From positions 1-60,791 of the forward strand of contig CAZIOU010000005.1 in NCBI GenBank assembly GCA_964540995.1: a stretch of DNA of 60,791 nt, written 5' to 3'. Below, one piece after another: positions 13,431 to 44,005 of the stretch (position 1 is the first letter of the stretch; every line of letters begins with the position of its first letter). The stretch is from an uncultured Gammaproteobacteria bacterium (GTDB lineage: Bacteria > Patescibacteriota > Patescibacteriia > UBA1558 > 2-01-FULL-52-15). A model generated the notes under the pieces. It searched no databases, had not been told where the DNA came from, and saw only the letters and a list, made by a program, of their open reading frames with translations. The position numbers and the translations under genes are program-made.

Positions 13431-13573
13431 ATAATAGCCGAATAAAGACCCACCCGGATAAACCAGGTGTGTCGTTGTAGTCTCGCGAAGAGACAGTTAG
13501 AGAGAAGAAATTGGATGATACATCGACAACAACGAATATGATACTTCGAGGAATTGAGATAACTATAAATAAC

Positions 13574-13603
13574 AAAGCCGCTGGTATTTACCTGCGGCTT
13601 TTT
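13574..13603. terminator. Bidirectional intrinsic terminator
   Basis: aaagccgc (13574-13581) pairs with gcggcttt (13594-13601), flanked by an A-run and a T-run. It lies downstream of the minus-strand 67-aa ORF. Confidence 0.7.
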
Positions 13604-13626
13604 AAACGACACATCCTCCTTGTTCA

Positions 13627-13830
13627 TTACCATTCAAACTCGTCATTGATGATCCCCGGTTGATCAAGAGGAATTTCTTCCGTATTATCAATGATACACG
13701 CAGAGTGATCGCCCTCTCGCTCTTTCAACATCCGCTCTGCTTCCTCACTGGTGCTTGCTAAGACAAAGGATAATGCTGGGCGATACGAAAAACCCAATTC
13801 TCCGCGCCAGTTGATTTTGAAAAGCTTCAT
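13627..13830 (-). CDS. Small hypothetical protein, 67 aa (orphan, acidic C-terminus)
   Basis: AAGGAGGG lies 5 nt upstream of the ATG, with its own TTGACA promoter and a terminator. Confidence 0.6.
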   Translation of the reverse strand: MKLFKINWRGELGFSYRPALSFVLASTSEEAERMLKEREGDHSACIIDNTEEIPLDQPGIINDEFEW

Positions 13831-13878
13831 GTCGCCCTCCTTGAAGAAAGGAACCGTGTCTAATCTAGATAATATATT

Positions 13879-13907
13879 ATTTTATAATATAAACTATCTT
13901 TTGTCAA
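13879..13907 (-). promoter_or_regulatory. Sigma70-type promoter TTGACA-17-TAAAAT
   Basis: -35 at 13907-13902 and -10 at 13884-13879. The heptamer TTGTCAA also reads TTGTCA on the plus strand (13901-13906), followed 17-18 nt later by ATATTA/TATTAG, so this is a possible back-to-back divergent promoter pair. Confidence 0.6.
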
Positions 13908-14062
13908 GGCCAATCTGTATTACATATTAGACACCCATTCTTCTACAAAATAGTGTAATTAAGCCCTTCAACTATTGATTGACTTCTCCCCCTACCCGAT
14001 GTAAGGTTGGGCCGAAACCAACCGTTACCGTCCTTTCACATAACGCTTATCAGGAGGATGTC

Positions 14063-14566
14063 ATGAGCGAATTTCAGCATCTCTATGTTGAAGTAGGCGA
14101 TCTACGAATACTACAGCAACTTATTCGACTGTATATCCACGAAACTTTCGTAATTCACCAGGACAAGCCGAAAATCATGGTAGGAATACTGATCTGGGAT
14201 CCAAGCGCCGACCCACTGCCACGGTTGCCTTGGACTATTCGGGCGCAGCCAGAACCACTGTTTCCCCTCCTGCTTATTGATTGGGCTCGAATATCAGATC
14301 AAAAACCCAATGACCAGACGTGGTACAAGCTAACCAAAGAACCAACCTACATTCTGCGTGATACCGTCGGTTATTCAGCGCTGGCCCAACTCGAAAACCA
14401 ACTCGGTCATTATCTCAGTCTTCACGATGGCGTATGGGATAAAGCCTGGAGCTCCGTCCCAAAACCCGACTGTGGCAGCAGCATCGAACTAGGATTTAGC
14501 TTGAGTGCTGGCTACTTTAATGGTCCACTAGTCATCGGAAGGCGCTGGATGGAATATCACGAGTAG
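14063..14566 (+). CDS. Hypothetical protein, 167 aa (orphan)
   Basis: The internal ATG at 14063 is preceded by CAGGAGGA. The track start at 13979 has no SD. Two terminators follow. Confidence 0.6.
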   Translation: MSEFQHLYVEVGDLRILQQLIRLYIHETFVIHQDKPKIMVGILIWDPSADPLPRLPWTIRAQPEPLFPLLLIDWARISDQKPNDQTWYKLTKEPTYILRDTVGYSALAQLENQLGHYLSLHDGVWDKAWSSVPKPDCGSSIELGFSLSAGYFNGPLVIGRRWMEYHE

Positions 14567-14586
14567 ACAGACTACTCCGACACACA

Positions 14587-14616
14587 GGAGCCTCTTCGGG
14601 GGCTCCTATTCTATTT
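14587..14616 (+). terminator. Intrinsic terminator ggagcctc-ttcg-ggggctcc
   Basis: It shares ~30 nt (acacaggagcctcttcgg.ggctcct.ttcta) with the terminator at 13401-13432. Confidence 0.7.
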
Positions 14617-14640
14617 GACTCAACACAAGTTAATATATAG

Positions 14641-14680
14641 AAGAGTCGCCAGGCAGAAGCCACAGCGACTCTTATTTTGT
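14641..14680. terminator. Second stem-loop between convergent ORFs
   Basis: aagagtcgc (14641-14649) pairs with gcgactctt (14665-14673), followed by attttgt. Confidence 0.6.
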
Positions 14681-14718
14681 CTTAAACGAATCTAAGCATC
14701 ACGAAACCGCAAAACTCT

Positions 14719-15207
14719 TCACATCCGTGAGGGCAACTCGATCTGCTTCATCACCTCAATCGGAGGAAGGTCGAGAATTGCCACATCATTATCATAGAGA
14801 ATATAGGAGACCCAGATTGTCCGACCCTTCCCTTTGGTATCGAAGAAACCTCTATTTGACTTCCACGGTACGAAACAGCCGACACCAACATCCAATCGAA
14901 ACTCTGTTCCCATACCAGCCATGAAATAACTCAACACATCACTGCCATTCATGTGCCTCATGTCTTGGATGACCCGCTTCACGTGCGCTGCCTCATCGGG
15001 ATCGCAATAGTCATCCGGGACCGACAAGGCAACGCGACGAGTCAGGTTATCCGTTTGACGCAGAGTCCAGATAATCACCCTCGTGGCCAAATCTGACGCA
15101 TCGACCGAATAGGTGACGAACTGTTCCAGTGCCTGCATCTGCCGATCGGACATGCGAGGCGGTATATAGACCTGATCTTGACCTCTGACCCAAGGGCGCC
15201 AAGGCAT
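14719..15207 (-). CDS. Hypothetical protein, 162 aa (orphan)
   Basis: The ATG at 15207 is preceded by GGAGG at 5 nt, which makes it the preferred start over the ATG at 15219 (whose own codons supply that GGAGG). It has its own TTGACA promoter. No motif recognised. Confidence 0.6.
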   Translation of the reverse strand: MPWRPWVRGQDQVYIPPRMSDRQMQALEQFVTYSVDASDLATRVIIWTLRQTDNLTRRVALSVPDDYCDPDEAAHVKRVIQDMRHMNGSDVLSYFMAGMGTEFRLDVGVGCFVPWKSNRGFFDTKGKGRTIWVSYILYDNDVAILDLPPIEVMKQIELPSRM

Positions 15208-15258
15208 CGAAACCTCCATTGTGGGTGTGAATAGAAAAGAACTAGGAAATAACTAACT

Positions 15259-15287
15259 ACCATAGCCAAATTAAAAAGCTATGTCAA
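15259..15287 (-). promoter_or_regulatory. Sigma70-type promoter TTGACA-17-TATGGT
   Basis: -35 at 15287-15282 and -10 at 15264-15259, immediately downstream of the SET-domain gene. Confidence 0.55.
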
Positions 15288-15311: not shown

Positions 15312-15782
15312 CTAAGGTCTTCCGTATTTCTTCACCAACCAAGCCGAAACATAGCCTCGGTATTTACGCCTCGTTGCTAGCGGCATATTACGATAAGCAC
15401 CGATCTTGCCCCGACAGCTAACTGTACCGCACTGACATTTCATACGCCAACGCGGATGATCTTCAGTCATCTCATAATCCCACGTAATCTCCTCCCCGAC
15501 CTCAATATCGCGCATCGCCACTACTTGGAATAATTTCTTGATACCACAATTGGGTTCGCAGGAATGATTGATCAGACGCGCCACTCCCAGACAGTCTCGC
15601 CAGCGACGCGGCGCGAATTGGATGGTGTGATGATAGAGATCGTGATTCCAATGCGGATACTCCCATTCATAGATCGGCCCATCATACTCGGCTACCACTT
15701 CACCTTTCTTGATTTTACGGGAAACGAAAACTCCCCTGCCTTTGCCTCGGGAAGTTTGTACGTATATCTTCTTACTATCCAT
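15312..15782 (-). CDS. SET-domain protein (putative protein-lysine methyltransferase)
   Basis: RLINHSCEPNC, GEEITWDY and a post-SET Cys cluster CQCGTVSCRG. The start overlaps the pheT stop (TAATG). Confidence 0.8.
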   Translation of the reverse strand: MDSKKIYVQTSRGKGRGVFVSRKIKKGEVVAEYDGPIYEWEYPHWNHDLYHHTIQFAPRRWRDCLGVARLINHSCEPNCGIKKLFQVVAMRDIEVGEEITWDYEMTEDHPRWRMKCQCGTVSCRGKIGAYRNMPLATRRKYRGYVSAWLVKKYGRP

Positions 15783-18202
15783 TACCGTGGAGTGGCTTGA
15801 AATTTCTTCTCTAGATCGGCCGTGATGCGTTTGATCAAGGTATCGACTTCGGCCGACTCCAATGTCTTATCGTTACTGCGAATGGTCAGTGAGAAAGCCA
15901 ATGAACGTTTACCCTCACCTAATTGTGGTGACTCGAAGACGTCGAAGAGATCGATCTCCTCCACCAGTCCCGAGCTGCCGGCAATCTGTTCGTAGATAGC
16001 TGCCCACGGGATCGTCCGATCAACAACAATCGCAATATCGCGGACAACACTGGGGAATTTGGGAAAGGCAGAGAAACTGCGTCGTACTTCTGCGTGCTTG
16101 ACCAGCTTCTGCAGATTGAGCTGCCACCAGACAACCGAATAACCGGCGAACTGCTCTTCTACCAATTCTGGTCGCAACGTACCAAGATAACCAAATTTCT
16201 GATCATGGGCCTGAATACTAAGCACGTGCGTACTGTGATCAAGAGCCTCAGCGATAAACTCATAAGGCAACGAATAGTGCTGCAACAACTGCTCGATCAA
16301 ACCCTTTGTTTCTAGATACAGCGTAGATACTGATTTGTCACGTGAGATACAGACACCAGCCAGCATCTTGGGTTGATCCGGTAAGAAATGCTTGTCGCTG
16401 CCATCAGTAGCAAATTCACCTTTGCCCGCGCGATAGGTGCGACCAATTTCAAATAAACTAAATTCATTGCTCCAGCGTAAATTTTCTTCTACCTTCTGCA
16501 TCAAGCCGGGTAATAACGAGGTGCGCATGAACTTCTGCTCATCATTGAGATAATTAGCCAAGCTCACTTGATGTTCGGTCAGACTGAGTCGCTCGGCCCA
16601 AGCATTGAAAGCAAAGGAATAGGTAGAAACTTCGAAGTAATTGGCGTGGTACGCTAAGCTATCTTTGAGCTGACGCTCCAACTGCAACATAACATTGCGC
16701 TCGGGTAATTCGAGAGCGATCACCGGCATCGTCGGAACAATATTGTCATAACCATAAATTCTGGTCACTTCCTCTACGAGATCTTCTGGGATGCCAATAT
16801 CTTTGGTAGCGCGGAATGACGGCACACCGACATGCCAATCTTTGGCTTTGTTCTGCACGGTGAAATTCAAACGAGTCAAAATTTGTTTGACCGTAGCATC
16901 AGGGATGTTGATGCCAGCAATGCGTGAGAACATTTCTTTGGGCACGATGATAGTGCGTTGGAAATCTGGCGCACGGTTAATATCGATCACTTTGCTGGCT
17001 ACAGTAGCATCAGGGCAGATCTCTCGGATAAGAGCCACCGCCCGCGCGATAACCTGCGGAGTCAGCAATGGATCAAGTGACTTCTCATAGCGAGCTGAAG
17101 CTTCGGTGCGTAGACCGAGAGCAGTCGACATACGCCTAATAGTGCTGGCTTGGAAATTGGCACAGGTCAATAACACTTGTTTGGTGGTGGGTTTAATCTC
17201 ACTGTGTTGACCGCCCATGATACCTCCGACATCAAGGATTTGTTTGCTGTCGGCAAAGACCACCATACCGCCTTCTAACTTGCGCTTCTCGCCATCCAAG
17301 GTGGTAATAGTTTGAGCTTTGGTCAGGGTTTTGACTTCGATCGGACCATTAGTGGCAGCGAAATCAAAAGCATGCATCGGATGACCAAGATCAAACATGA
17401 CGTAGTTGGTGACATCAACGATATTGTTGATAGAACGAATACCGACGCTGTGAAGAGCTCGCTTGAGCCACCACGGTGATTCGCCGACGACGACATTATC
17501 TAGCACAACCGCTGATAAACGATAACAGGCTTCAGCAGTAGTCGTTAGTTGTAAATCAATCGTTTCTGCGCTTGATTTAAGCGGCAATAATTTCACCGGC
17601 TTCAATTTGGTATCGTAGACAGCCGCTAGCTCACGCGCCAAACCATATTGACCCCAGAGATCAGGACGGTGGGTCATCGATTTGTTATCAATGTCGAGAA
17701 TAATATCGTTTAAACCCAAGGCTTCAGCCAGAGGCGTGCCAGCCTTGACGCCAAATTCAGTCAGATCGATAATCTCGTGTTCTGACTCCACCGGGAAGAG
17801 ATCTTGCAAACCTATTTCCGAAGCAGCCACGATCATACCGTGACTTTCTTGACCGCGTATCTTGGCTGGTTCCAAGGTCACCAGATCACCTTGGCCGTGC
17901 CACCGCACCTTACTACCTACCGTGGCTACAGCTACCAGCATCTGCTCGCGTAGATTGGTACCACCGCAGACAATCTGCACTACTTCGGTACCGATAGCAG
18001 TATTACAAATCCACAGCTTATCGGCTTGGGGATGTTTGACGATTTCTCTGATCTGTCCGACGACGATACCGTCCAACTGTTTAGCTTGTTCCAGCACCTC
18101 CTCTACTTCAACTGTGGACATAGTCAATTTCAAAGCTAACTCTTTGGGCTCAACGTCTGGAAGAGTAAGATACTGCTTGATCCAATTAACAGATAGATAC
18201 AT
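15782..18202 (-). CDS. pheT: Phenylalanine--tRNA ligase beta subunit
   Basis: 806 aa with N-terminal MYLSVNWIKQYL and a tRNA-binding domain, B3/4 and B5 regions. It lies directly after pheS. Confidence 0.9.
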   Translation of the reverse strand: MYLSVNWIKQYLTLPDVEPKELALKLTMSTVEVEEVLEQAKQLDGIVVGQIREIVKHPQADKLWICNTAIGTEVVQIVCGGTNLREQMLVAVATVGSKVRWHGQGDLVTLEPAKIRGQESHGMIVAASEIGLQDLFPVESEHEIIDLTEFGVKAGTPLAEALGLNDIILDIDNKSMTHRPDLWGQYGLARELAAVYDTKLKPVKLLPLKSSAETIDLQLTTTAEACYRLSAVVLDNVVVGESPWWLKRALHSVGIRSINNIVDVTNYVMFDLGHPMHAFDFAATNGPIEVKTLTKAQTITTLDGEKRKLEGGMVVFADSKQILDVGGIMGGQHSEIKPTTKQVLLTCANFQASTIRRMSTALGLRTEASARYEKSLDPLLTPQVIARAVALIREICPDATVASKVIDINRAPDFQRTIIVPKEMFSRIAGINIPDATVKQILTRLNFTVQNKAKDWHVGVPSFRATKDIGIPEDLVEEVTRIYGYDNIVPTMPVIALELPERNVMLQLERQLKDSLAYHANYFEVSTYSFAFNAWAERLSLTEHQVSLANYLNDEQKFMRTSLLPGLMQKVEENLRWSNEFSLFEIGRTYRAGKGEFATDGSDKHFLPDQPKMLAGVCISRDKSVSTLYLETKGLIEQLLQHYSLPYEFIAEALDHSTHVLSIQAHDQKFGYLGTLRPELVEEQFAGYSVVWWQLNLQKLVKHAEVRRSFSAFPKFPSVVRDIAIVVDRTIPWAAIYEQIAGSSGLVEEIDLFDVFESPQLGEGKRSLAFSLTIRSNDKTLESAEVDTLIKRITADLEKKFQATPR

Positions 18203-18256: not shown

Positions 18257-19264
18257 TTAGAATTGTTTTAGAAAACGAATATCAGAAGCGGCCAAGTGGC
18301 GAACGTCATCAATACCGTACTTCATCATGACTAGACGACTAAGCCCAAGGCCAAAAGCAAACCCCGTAAACTGCTGCGGATCAATGCCACCTTCTCGTAA
18401 TACTGTCGGGTGTACCATGCCGCAAGGAATTAGCTCGACCCAACCAGACTGTTTGCAGACGCTACAGCCTTTACCTTCGCAGATCAGACAGCGCAGATCC
18501 AGCTCAAATCCAGGTTCAACGAAAGGGAAATAACCCGGTCGCAAACGTACCTGGACATCACGTTGGAAGATAGATTGCAACAAGGTCCGCATGGTAGCGA
18601 TCAGATTGGCGATAGTAATATTCTTATCCACCATCAAGCCTTCCATTTGATAAAAAGTATGTTCGTGCGAAGCGTCAGTTGATTCATAACGAAATACTCG
18701 TCCTGGGACGACACCACGAAATGGCGCACCATATTTCTGTAAAGCTCGGACCTGGACCGGTGAGGTGTGGGTACGTAATAAATTGCCGTCCGTCAGCCAA
18801 AAGGTATCTTGAGTATCGCGAGCAGGATGATCATCAGGAATATTGAGCGCGGTAAAATTGTAATATTCGGATTCAATCTCTGGACCGTCAAGCACACGGA
18901 AACCCATCTGACGGAAGACGTCTTCTAGTTGGCGTTGGATAGTCGTCAAAGGGTGCAGATGACCGAGCGGCAGCGGTTTACCCGGCAAGGTAGCGTCGAA
19001 ATCATTTAAGCGCTGTGACACTTTCTTTAGCGAACGCTCTGCTTGGTCCAAGGCAGTCTGCAAATCACGCTTAATCTTATTGGCTAGCTGACCAATCTTA
19101 GGACGTTCTTCCTTAGACAATTCCGTTAAGCCTGACAAGACATCATTGAGGATACCTTTGCGGCCCAAGAAAGCATTGCGGACATCCTCCAAACCTTTGG
19201 CGTCAGTAGCAGCTTCTAAAGCTGATAAAAAATCTGCCTGAATTTTTTGTAATCGTTTTTGCAT
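18257..19264 (-). CDS. pheS: Phenylalanine--tRNA ligase alpha subunit
   Basis: HPLT.., LLRTHTSPVQVR, FRYE..DASHEHTFYQMEG and GFAFGLGLSRL are class II motifs. The track start at 19279 is TTG; the first ATG is at 19264. Confidence 0.9.
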   Translation of the reverse strand: MQKRLQKIQADFLSALEAATDAKGLEDVRNAFLGRKGILNDVLSGLTELSKEERPKIGQLANKIKRDLQTALDQAERSLKKVSQRLNDFDATLPGKPLPLGHLHPLTTIQRQLEDVFRQMGFRVLDGPEIESEYYNFTALNIPDDHPARDTQDTFWLTDGNLLRTHTSPVQVRALQKYGAPFRGVVPGRVFRYESTDASHEHTFYQMEGLMVDKNITIANLIATMRTLLQSIFQRDVQVRLRPGYFPFVEPGFELDLRCLICEGKGCSVCKQSGWVELIPCGMVHPTVLREGGIDPQQFTGFAFGLGLSRLVMMKYGIDDVRHLAASDIRFLKQF

Positions 19265-19266
19265 AA

Positions 19267-19659
19267 TTATTCTTCCCAACGAGGTTTACTAAGTATCAAT
19301 AAGGTAAACTCCATAGTAGCGAAAGCAATCACCAAGAGCATGATCAGCCACCAGCTCAATAACCGTTGTGACTGTAGGGCTAAAGCGGTAACGAGAGCCA
19401 AAGCCCAGAGACAAGCTTGTCGGAAGGCCATCGAGACGCGGTAAATCTGTCCCCGCTTACGGCCTTGGAAGAGCCAACGGATACCGATCCCGACCAGTGA
19501 TAACGTACCAATCAAAGATAACAATAAGCTGACGTAGAAAAACATAAATTCAAAAGCGCTAGCAGAAGTCGGATTTACCATAAATACAATAACCGCCCAG
19601 CCAGACCACGCCAGGACGGTCGTTAACAGCATCAAAACTATAAAGGTTTTAAGTCCCAT
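19267..19659 (-). CDS. Hypothetical integral membrane protein (about 4 TM helices)
   Basis: Hydrophobic segments throughout. Its stop lies 2 nt before the pheS ATG. Confidence 0.5.
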   Translation of the reverse strand: MGLKTFIVLMLLTTVLAWSGWAVIVFMVNPTSASAFEFMFFYVSLLLSLIGTLSLVGIGIRWLFQGRKRGQIYRVSMAFRQACLWALALVTALALQSQRLLSWWLIMLLVIAFATMEFTLLILSKPRWEE

Positions 19660-19690: not shown

Positions 19691-19735
19691 AAAAAATCAA
19701 GAAAAACCCCTCACCACAACGAATGTGATGAGGGG
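19691..19735 (-). terminator. Intrinsic terminator after the nuclease gene
   Basis: On the minus strand: cccctcatcaca-ttcgt-tgtggtgagggg, followed by tttttcttgatttttt. Confidence 0.75.
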
Positions 19736-19740
19736 CGTAA

Positions 19741-42554: not shown

Positions 42555-44005
42555 GATATGCGATTAAATAAATTAGTGGGTTTAGAAATTTTGGGTGAGG
42601 CAAAGACGGCGCTAATGACTTCGGCTGTCTGCGGCATAACCGGTGCGATCAGACGAGCGACCAATTTGATTCTACCCAACAAACCAACAAGTACTTCTTG
42701 GGCCTTGGTCGCATCAGTTTTGGCTAGTTCCCAGGGCTTCTCTTGCTCCATGATCTGATCACCTTCGCGTACGATCTGCCAGATCAATTGCAAGGCTTCT
42801 TTGAACTGAACCCGCTTCATCGCTTGATCAATGGCTTCGGCTTGTGGTGCCACGTACTCAGTGATGATAACTCCTTCAGGCACAAATTTCTCTGCCAGAT
42901 GAGTCACGCGGGCGACGAAGTTTCCTAAACCATTAGCCAATTCACCGTTGTAGCGTTCGGCCATGTCACTAATCTTGATATCTGACTCGGAACCGAAAGA
43001 AAATTGCGACAAAATCAAATAACGCGTGGCATCAGCACCATATTGAGTCACCAGAGCATTAGGATCAATCACGTTGCCAATACTCTTACTCATCTTCTGC
43101 CCATCAACGGTGAAAAAGCCATGCACCCACAATTCCTTAGGCAAGGGTAACTTCAAAGCCAATAACATCGCCGGCCAATAGATAGCGTGAAATTTGAGAA
43201 TATCAGGCGCCAAGATTTGAGCCGAAGCTGGCCACCAAGTTTCAAATAATTTATCATCCTGCGGATAGCCGATGGCAGTAATATAATTCATCAAGGCTTC
43301 GATCCAAACATAGATCACCTGCTCTGGATCCCACGGCACCGGTATACCCCACTTGACGGTCTGACGTGAGACAGAAAAATCTGGTAATTCCTGTTGCAGT
43401 AAACCTAAAACTTCATTCTTTCGCGTCTCGGGAAGAATTTTGATACTATCGTTACTAATCAATTCTGTCAGCTGCGGCAACCAGTCTTGTAGGCGGAAAA
43501 ACCAATTCTTCTCTTTCAATAGTTGCGGTGCTTGATTAGGATGCAGTGGACACTTGCCATCAACCAATTCTCTTTCCGTTAGGAACTTTTCACAACCGAC
43601 ACAGTACAATCCTTCATACTCACCAGTGTACAAGACGTCTTTACCAAGTGGCGTAACTGCTGCTCGTAAACGAGCCATAATCTTACCGACCGCTTCTTCG
43701 TGTCGCGGTTCAGTCGTACGGATGAAATCATCTTGAGCAATGTGGAGATTGGTCCAGGTTGCACGGAACTGCTCGGCTACGGTGTCGACAAACTGCTCGA
43801 CAGGTACACCTTGCTCTTGAGCCTTCTGCAATATCTTGGCACCGTGTTCGTCAGTACCAGTCAAAAACCAGACCTTGTCCTTACCCAGCTTCTCACGCCA
43901 ATAGCGACTAGCGACGTCTGCCAACAAGGTTGAATAAGCATGACCGAGATGTGGTTGGTCATTGACGTAATAGATTGGCGTCGTGATATAGAATCGCTGC
44001 GGCAT
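42551..44005 (-). CDS. metG: Methionine--tRNA ligase
   Basis: TTPIYYVNDQPHLGHAY (HIGH), CxxC knuckle (CVGCEKF..CPLH) and KMSKSIGN. Confidence 0.93.
   Translation of the reverse strand: MPQRFYITTPIYYVNDQPHLGHAYSTLLADVASRYWREKLGKDKVWFLTGTDEHGAKILQKAQEQGVPVEQFVDTVAEQFRATWTNLHIAQDDFIRTTEPRHEEAVGKIMARLRAAVTPLGKDVLYTGEYEGLYCVGCEKFLTERELVDGKCPLHPNQAPQLLKEKNWFFRLQDWLPQLTELISNDSIKILPETRKNEVLGLLQQELPDFSVSRQTVKWGIPVPWDPEQVIYVWIEALMNYITAIGYPQDDKLFETWWPASAQILAPDILKFHAIYWPAMLLALKLPLPKELWVHGFFTVDGQKMSKSIGNVIDPNALVTQYGADATRYLILSQFSFGSESDIKISDMAERYNGELANGLGNFVARVTHLAEKFVPEGVIITEYVAPQAEAIDQAMKRVQFKEALQLIWQIVREGDQIMEQEKPWELAKTDATKAQEVLVGLLGRIKLVARLIAPVMPQTAEVISAVFASPKISKPTNLFNRIS

Follow-up and report, generated by a model that had tools for sequence, protein, structure and literature searches.

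A SET-domain gene of bacterial lineage at the 3′ end of pheT: a predicted methyltransferase whose operon position is confined to one genus

In a Patescibacteria/CPR genome, the last base of the pheT stop codon is also the first base of a gene encoding a small SET-domain protein. This arrangement raises the question of what such an enzyme methylates, and whether its place behind a phenylalanyl-tRNA synthetase gene says anything about the substrate. We examined the protein (P0001), its surroundings in the window (the whole 60,791-nucleotide stretch of DNA that was analysed) and its relatives in other genomes.

P0001 carries GKGRG and every motif of the SET signature that the original prediction had read from its translation (RLINHSCEPNC, GEEITWDY and CQCGTVSC), and the Pfam SET model (PF00856) matches it at 61.8 bits (cut-off 22.4; E 9e-17) over model positions 1-104 of 105. 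The cofactor and catalytic motifs are G15-R-G17, N72-H73-S74-C75 and E-I-T-W-D102-Y103. In an alignment of 66 diverse relatives, reaching down to 31% identity with P0001, H73 and Y103 are invariant, as are the four cysteines of the post-SET zinc cluster (C75 of NHSC and C116, C118 and C123 of CxCx4C; 66 of 66 relatives); G15, N72, S74, P77, N78, D102, R124 and Y141 are nearly so. Thus, the NHSC motif and the DY tyrosine, whose loss had been named beforehand as grounds for abandoning the assignment, are both kept in a proper alignment. The protein ends in a conserved tail (residues about 126-156, consensus IGxYxxMPxxxRxKYxGYISxWL), and atlas searches with residues 120-156 matched only other SET proteins or unnamed short clusters. 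The start codon is backed by homologues, all of which open with MD(S/N)xK.

Comparison with the same-genus genome G002 gave a dS of 0.51 and a dN of 0.008 for the SET gene. Since the resulting dN/dS of 0.016 indicates strong purifying selection, tighter than that on the adjoining pheT (dN/dS 0.037), we conclude from these substitution rates that the gene is functional. It is the only SET gene in the whole genome (G000; a 1.1-Mb assembly, 91% complete). An origin from a mobile element or phage was considered and rejected, as the gene belongs to no PHROGs or PADLOC family and its GC content is that of its flanks; a tblastn search against 50,697 phage records also gave no match.

The features of the locus are collected in the table. 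The pheT product has five Pfam domains (tRNA_bind, B3_4, B5, tRNA_synthFbeta and FDX-ACB). For pheS, the true start is probably the ATG at 19264, 2 nt past the stop of the upstream gene, rather than the listed TTG at 19279. Upstream of these genes, the hairpin at 19736-19706 closes the preceding nuclease gene. No Rfam family was found at threshold anywhere in the window, and an RNA leader or T-box ahead of the pheST unit was rejected on this basis.

Features of the SET locus and the unlinked AdoMetDC-like gene, with positions in the window unless a contig is named
Feature	Positions	Strand	Basis or remark
SET + post-SET methyltransferase gene (P0001, 156 aa)	15312..15782	minus	Pfam SET, AF2 model, MLL1 match, dN/dS
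TAATG junction	15780..15784	minus	pheT stop TAA (15784-15782) and SET start ATG (15782-15780), read from sequence
pheT, phenylalanine-tRNA ligase beta subunit, 806 aa	15782..18202	minus	TIGR00472, 663 bits
pheS, phenylalanine-tRNA ligase alpha subunit	18257..19279	minus	TIGR00468, 298 bits
130-aa predicted membrane protein, first cistron	19267..19659	minus	sub-threshold DUF3099 match only
Intrinsic-terminator-like hairpin, 13 pairs and T run	19706..19736	minus	5′ boundary of pheST-SET unit
Promoter-like site TTGACA-17 nt-TATGGT	15259..15287	minus	between SET and next gene
Downstream orphan gene P0121, 166 aa (162 aa from second ATG)	14719..15219	minus	no Pfam, PHROGs or PADLOC match
P0288, 120-aa divergent AdoMetDC-like gene	G000 contig C15, 11613-11972	minus	homology to fused domains

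On the minus strand the junction reads CCACGGTAATGGAT, in which base 15782 is common to the pheT TAA and the SET ATG; the shared nucleotide that had been reported is thus seen in the sequence, and G002 has the identical junction. We found no terminator between pheT and SET and no terminator-like site directly 3′ of SET. As a separate promoter-like site lies downstream, with both hexamers kept in G002 and the surrounding spacer diverged, SET is the last cistron of this tightly packed operon, as originally described, and read-through is possible. Since it sits at the pheT 3′ end with no terminator between, SET is therefore predicted to be co-transcribed with the membrane-protein-pheS-pheT unit. 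Ribosomes terminating on pheT would probably translate SET, giving steady expression at a housekeeping level; we infer both expression and coupling from the sequence.

The overlap itself is ordinary genome compaction, as 1-nt and 4-nt overlaps are frequent in the window (e.g., at 44005 and 57135). We dropped a Shine-Dalgarno argument for pheT-SET coupling: such a motif occurs within 20 nt before the start in only 4 of the window's 40 large ORFs, so that its absence at SET is uninformative, and translation initiation in this genome seems to proceed largely without Shine-Dalgarno pairing. Beyond the promoter-like site, the second ATG of P0121 has GGAGG upstream. P0121 is a fast-evolving gene behind its own promoter-like site: it is 54% identical to its G002 counterpart at the protein level, where SET is 99% and pheT 95.5% identical. 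As far as can be seen, P0121 lies outside the function of SET. Farther on, about 13494-14727, including a 195-aa plus-strand ORF (13979-14566), has no counterpart in G002. Since the G002 flanks are nearly adjacent there, this segment is a strain-specific insertion or deletion.

The original prediction considered SET hard-wired into an aminoacyl-tRNA-synthetase operon, and from that position it derived a possible target in translation. We mapped the pheT C-terminal domain relative to SET in 69 further SET-bearing genomes of the phylum. The two genes were adjacent in only one of the 69, the same-genus G002. The next-closest pairs were 4.8 kb (G326) and 9.3 kb (G104) apart on opposite strands and 13 kb apart in G007; in the remaining genomes, pheT and SET lay tens of kb from each other or on separate contigs. 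A second same-genus genome, G001 (98% complete), encodes PheS and PheT with 82-84% amino acid identity, yet a hairpin and T run come immediately after its pheT stop, and there is no SET gene anywhere in the genome. Thus, SET occurs in this genus exactly at the pheT 3′ end, where the sister species has just a terminator. Same-family orthologues of SET (54-56% identity) lie elsewhere, between atpA and atpG (G007) or after an M23 peptidase gene (G008 and G013), and other contexts include positions after ftsK, after a Rieske/flavin oxidoreductase gene, before a holin-like gene and secG, and among unknowns. In G007 (contig C1, locus L006, 574-3433), SET is set into the ATP synthase operon with gaps of 16 nt to atpA and 3 nt to atpG. 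All-against-all clustering of the ORFs within 4 kb of 90 SET loci revealed no shared neighbor, returning only spurious antisense ORFs and generic families.

These data do not bear out the hard-wiring, and operon position gives no real evidence for a translation target. Because the pheT link is confined to this genus, position says little about substrate. With no conserved synteny, the position therefore reflects the chance landing of a small gene without a promoter of its own among densely packed genes; it is a lineage-specific accident of a compact genome, with no functional link to phenylalanyl-tRNA synthetase.

The same survey weighs against the reading that SET stays in the pheST operon because its substrate is phenylalanyl-tRNA synthetase, a ribosomal protein or a translation factor. 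Yeast SET-domain enzymes methylate ribosomal proteins, and the one-base overlap is kept in two species. EF-P, S18 and S6 are encoded near SET in one other context, and in a Jorgensenbacteria genome the CCA-adding enzyme and pheST lie within 3 kb of SET, with pheT 2.6 kb away on the other strand. However, since so much of any CPR genome is devoted to translation, some such genes are expected nearby by chance. With the adjacency limited to G002 and missing from G001, and with orthologues lying inside operons for ATP synthase, a peptidase, ftsK and others, we consider this reading very improbable.

SET genes had also been described as rare in bacteria, a view that our counts do not support and that does not hold for this phylum. 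We detected PF00856 in 56 of 301 genomes drawn evenly from Patescibacteria/CPR (52 of the 254 high-quality ones), and P0001 as a query had a match in 15 of the 41 close relatives. In a motif-seeded search of species-representative genomes we confirmed at least 589 SET loci, spanning Actinomycetota, Pseudomonadota, Planctomycetota, Acidobacteriota, Cyanobacteriota, Thaumarchaeota, DPANN archaea and others. An exhaustive HMMER search returned 9,101 representative clusters at E≤1e-3, of which 1,534 reached E≤1e-10.

A phylogeny of the SET domain had been proposed as a way to separate eukaryote-like from bacterial clades. Maximum-likelihood trees (quick IQ-TREE runs with SH-aLRT support only, rooted on animal SET as outgroup) placed P0001 and its G002 twin in a clade of 25 stand-alone proteins (SH-aLRT 96), whose members come from CPR bacteria (including Jorgensenbacteria and same-family genomes), Bdellovibrionota and one Pirellulales bin (a 5-kb contig). 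Other CPR SET genes fall into different clades, mixed with Actinomycetota and Chloroflexota. Because P0001 thus lies inside a prokaryotic clade, grouping with bacterial and archaeal sequences and apart from the canonical animal SET outgroup, the gene is, by its placement in these trees, of bacterial lineage and was not recently acquired from a eukaryote. Its patchy distribution is consistent with horizontal transfer and loss. We also noted three eukaryotic proteins of about 1,450 aa, P0130 and P0145 (kinetoplastids) and P0133 (Mesostigma), which carry five to seven SET stretches in tandem and match the prokaryotic family, including part of the C-terminal tail. The kinetoplastid proteins nest among bacterial sequences on long branches and may reflect transfer from a bacterium to a eukaryote followed by tandem duplication.

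The membership of the clade bears on another reading, in which SET is an effector that an episymbiont delivers to its bacterial or archaeal host or prey, where it methylates host proteins. CPR bacteria, Bdellovibrionota and Nanoarchaeota commonly live on other microbes. A tight SET subfamily (49-66% identity) occurs in the first two, with a broken copy in a Nanoarchaeota genome, and Chlamydia and Legionella are known to secrete SET effectors (PMC3980110, PMC2904774). However, the N-terminus of P0001 (MDSKKIYVQT...) has, by eye, no hydrophobic stretch resembling a signal peptide, the protein scores 19.9 bits with the NCBIfam T4SS_AnkI/LegAS4 model (cut-off 550), and no secretion genes adjoin SET. 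The subfamily is found in just 8 of 251 sampled Bdellovibrionota, and more distant relatives are present in the free-living Streptomyces, Rhodococcus, Erythrobacter and Comamonas. As the CPR, Bdellovibrionota and Nanoarchaeota genomes often come from the same samples, gene transfer or mis-binning could explain the distribution. Delivery to a host is, in our estimate, very improbable.

To compare P0001 with solved structures, we used an AlphaFold (AF2) model built from the 66-sequence alignment (pLDDT 96.6, pTM 0.90); an earlier model from 20 close homologues (pLDDT 52.7) was discarded. Foldseek and VIA-align found 42 solved chains at Z≥8, and among the matches listed all were SET or PR domains. 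The best match was MLL1 SET (Z 12.9, rmsd 2.6 Å over 123 aligned residues), with yeast SET1, Set2 and SETD2 at Z 12.1-12.5; the matching region covered residues 1-128. The bacterial SET protein BurB scored Z 11.9, and Legionella LegAS4, at Z 9.5, fell below the eukaryotic SETs. The family profile gave 100 bits for MLL1 SET and 76.8 bits for BurB. By sequence and by modeled fold, P0001 is closest to KMT2-type lysine methyltransferases. A histone as its target was rejected: no histone fold (PF00808) was found in the 91% complete genome at E≤0.1.

Our preferred reading, which we hold at slightly less than even confidence, is that P0001 is a protein-lysine methyltransferase acting on the epsilon-amine of lysine in one or more abundant proteins of its own cell. 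Prokaryotic SET enzymes that act on chromatin proteins of their own cells include Go1-SET, on MC1-alpha, and a chlamydial SET (PMC3980110). As a stand-alone SET and post-SET protein, P0001 is predicted to depend on S-adenosylmethionine, for which GxG and NHSC would form the binding site. Tyr103 would line the acceptor channel; the post-SET zinc would be coordinated by four cysteines, with the pocket completed by the conserved tail. Several observations speak against protein lysine as the acceptor. The clade has no conserved partner gene beside it, the genome has no histone fold, and the nearest relatives are fused to SAM-decarboxylase-like, class I methyltransferase or unknown domains, a pattern that points to metabolism rather than protein modification. 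In addition, BurB shows that the SET fold can methylate a free amino acid (PMC12542666).

An unlikely alternative is that SET methylates a free amino acid or amine by chemistry like that of BurB/MSMT, possibly together with P0288, an unlinked AdoMetDC-like protein. BurB/MSMT is a SET-domain methionine S-methyltransferase that converts methionine to S-methylmethionine in the biosynthesis of DMSP and malleicyprol, and it binds methionine mainly through main-chain atoms (PMC12542666). BurB (PDB 9l4t) matches P0001 at E 3.6e-11, or 1e-20 with the family profile, and is 30% identical in the structural alignment at the Z given above. Against this, the profile fits KMT2-type lysine methyltransferases better than BurB, and no homologue of BurI, BurD or BurE was found among the neighbors of SET in the window.

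Domain fusions add to the case for a small-molecule acceptor. Among the best 150 representatives, an AdoMetDC-like domain lies on one or the other side of SET in 10, a class I methyltransferase is fused in 2 and an unknown domain of ~330 aa in 18. The fused SET domains and the clade of P0001 form one group (43 rows, SH-aLRT 92), although that clade is itself entirely stand-alone. The unannotated domain, ~300-335 aa long and found on either side of SET domains closely related to that of P0001 in P0155, P0161, P0163, P0183, P0212 and 13 others, was matched by no Pfam family or PDB sequence, and this genome encodes no homologue; a weak, feature-based lead pointed to GNAT acetyltransferases.

A partner for such chemistry might be P0288, which is 36-43% identical to the fused AdoMetDC-like N-terminal domains. 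In AdoMetDC, a serine becomes the pyruvoyl group and the second of two histidines aids self-processing. In an alignment with solved AdoMetDC structures, the Glu-Ser processing site and the Cys are present in P0288, whereas the two His of the canonical enzyme are replaced by Gly and Tyr. Among 41 relatives, P0288-type genes were detected only in G000 and G002 (174-176 bits), the two genomes with the pheT-SET arrangement, and not in G001. Since G000 and G002 are sister species, this co-occurrence counts once, as a single observation. Moreover, G007, G008, G012 and G013, of the same family, have the SET subfamily without a P0288-type gene. We also inspected four P0288-type genes that stand alone elsewhere; their surroundings look mostly archaeal, and no SET was found within 4 kb of any of them. 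SET (contig C5) and P0288 (contig C15) are neither fused nor adjacent; the gene to which P0288 is coupled encodes a 276-aa nucleotidyltransferase-like protein instead.

We note that this coupling (G000 contig C15, 9487-11972; L110 1487-3973, minus strand) is a 1-nt overlap of P0288 with the nucleotidyltransferase-fold gene, which is followed by a class II aminoacyl-tRNA synthetase gene of the Asp/Asn/Lys type. On a Nanoarchaeota contig (L119), a P0288-type gene is likewise overlapped by a 276-aa gene with the same GS...DxD motif; the two 276-aa genes are weakly similar (E 0.003, single comparison). From these two arrangements, the decarboxylase-like and nucleotidyltransferase genes may form a conserved module.

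The specific form of the small-molecule reading, in which SET and P0288 are a split AdoMetDC-like::SET enzyme that turns a free amino acid into a methylated amine or a sulfonium compound, as BurB and a decarboxylase make DMSP-amine, is more doubtful than the general one. If true, the two proteins would let an ultra-small symbiont make a polyamine-like cation by a compact route, and the product would not be a mark on chromatin or protein. This genome and the same-genus G001, which has neither gene, offer a natural comparison for the idea of a small-molecule enzyme. Acceptors of other kinds share the probability that remains after methylation of own-protein lysine, of small molecules, of the translation machinery and of host proteins.

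Together, our results reveal that P0001 is an ordinary member of a large, already reviewed prokaryotic SET family, and that its operon position carries no functional signal. What is new is the placement, by sequence comparison, of a stand-alone SET clade beside fused SET domains, a candidate for an unlinked partner in the same genome, and a genus-level pattern in which SET and P0288 are both present in G000 and G002 and both not found in G001. As about one in five sampled CPR genomes has a SET gene, the question arises of what minimal cells methylate. The kinship with BurB and with decarboxylase- and methyltransferase-fused SETs suggests that some bacterial genes labeled histone-methyltransferase-like may encode small-molecule enzymes. 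Our searches of the literature found nothing on the SET domain in Patescibacteria, a passing mention only for the candidate phyla radiation and nothing relevant for Bdellovibrio.

Among known systems, the KMT2/SET1-type modules (MLL1, PDB 2w5y, 6pwv) share with P0001 the GxG motif, NHSCEPNC, the xDY tyrosine and CxCx4C. MLL1 is its best match in both sequence and structure, at 33% identity; however, P0001 has no flanking domains, and its tail past residue 128 is without an MLL1 counterpart. The AdoMetDC-like::SET fusions of CPR bacteria have SET domains that are 39-48% identical to P0001 and group with its clade, but in this genome the two genes are unlinked and most clade members lack such a partner. 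The decarboxylase side of these fusions is related to SpeD and to the neofunctionalised SpeDA and SpeDC (PMC10407285); we found no description of the fusions in the literature searchable here, and the paper on neofunctionalised SpeD proteins is silent on SET fusions (PMC10407285).

BurB (172 aa; PDB 9l4t, 9l4v) is, like P0001, a small bacterial SET protein of similar size, but it scores lower against the P0001 family than lysine methyltransferases do, and the SET gene described here is not in a bur-like cluster. P0001 also differs from the secreted effectors NUE and RomA/LegAS4: it falls far below the cut-off of the LegAS4 family model, and its gene lies in no secretion context. Go1-SET of Methanosarcina mazei, which methylates MC1-alpha (Alvarez-Venegas, 2014; PMC3980110), is like P0001 a small single-domain protein of prokaryotic descent with the same motifs. 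The P0001 clade appears to differ from stand-alone prokaryotic SETs such as Go1-SET in its conserved tail of ~30 residues after the post-SET cysteines and in a Trp at the Phe/Tyr-switch position (EITWDY).
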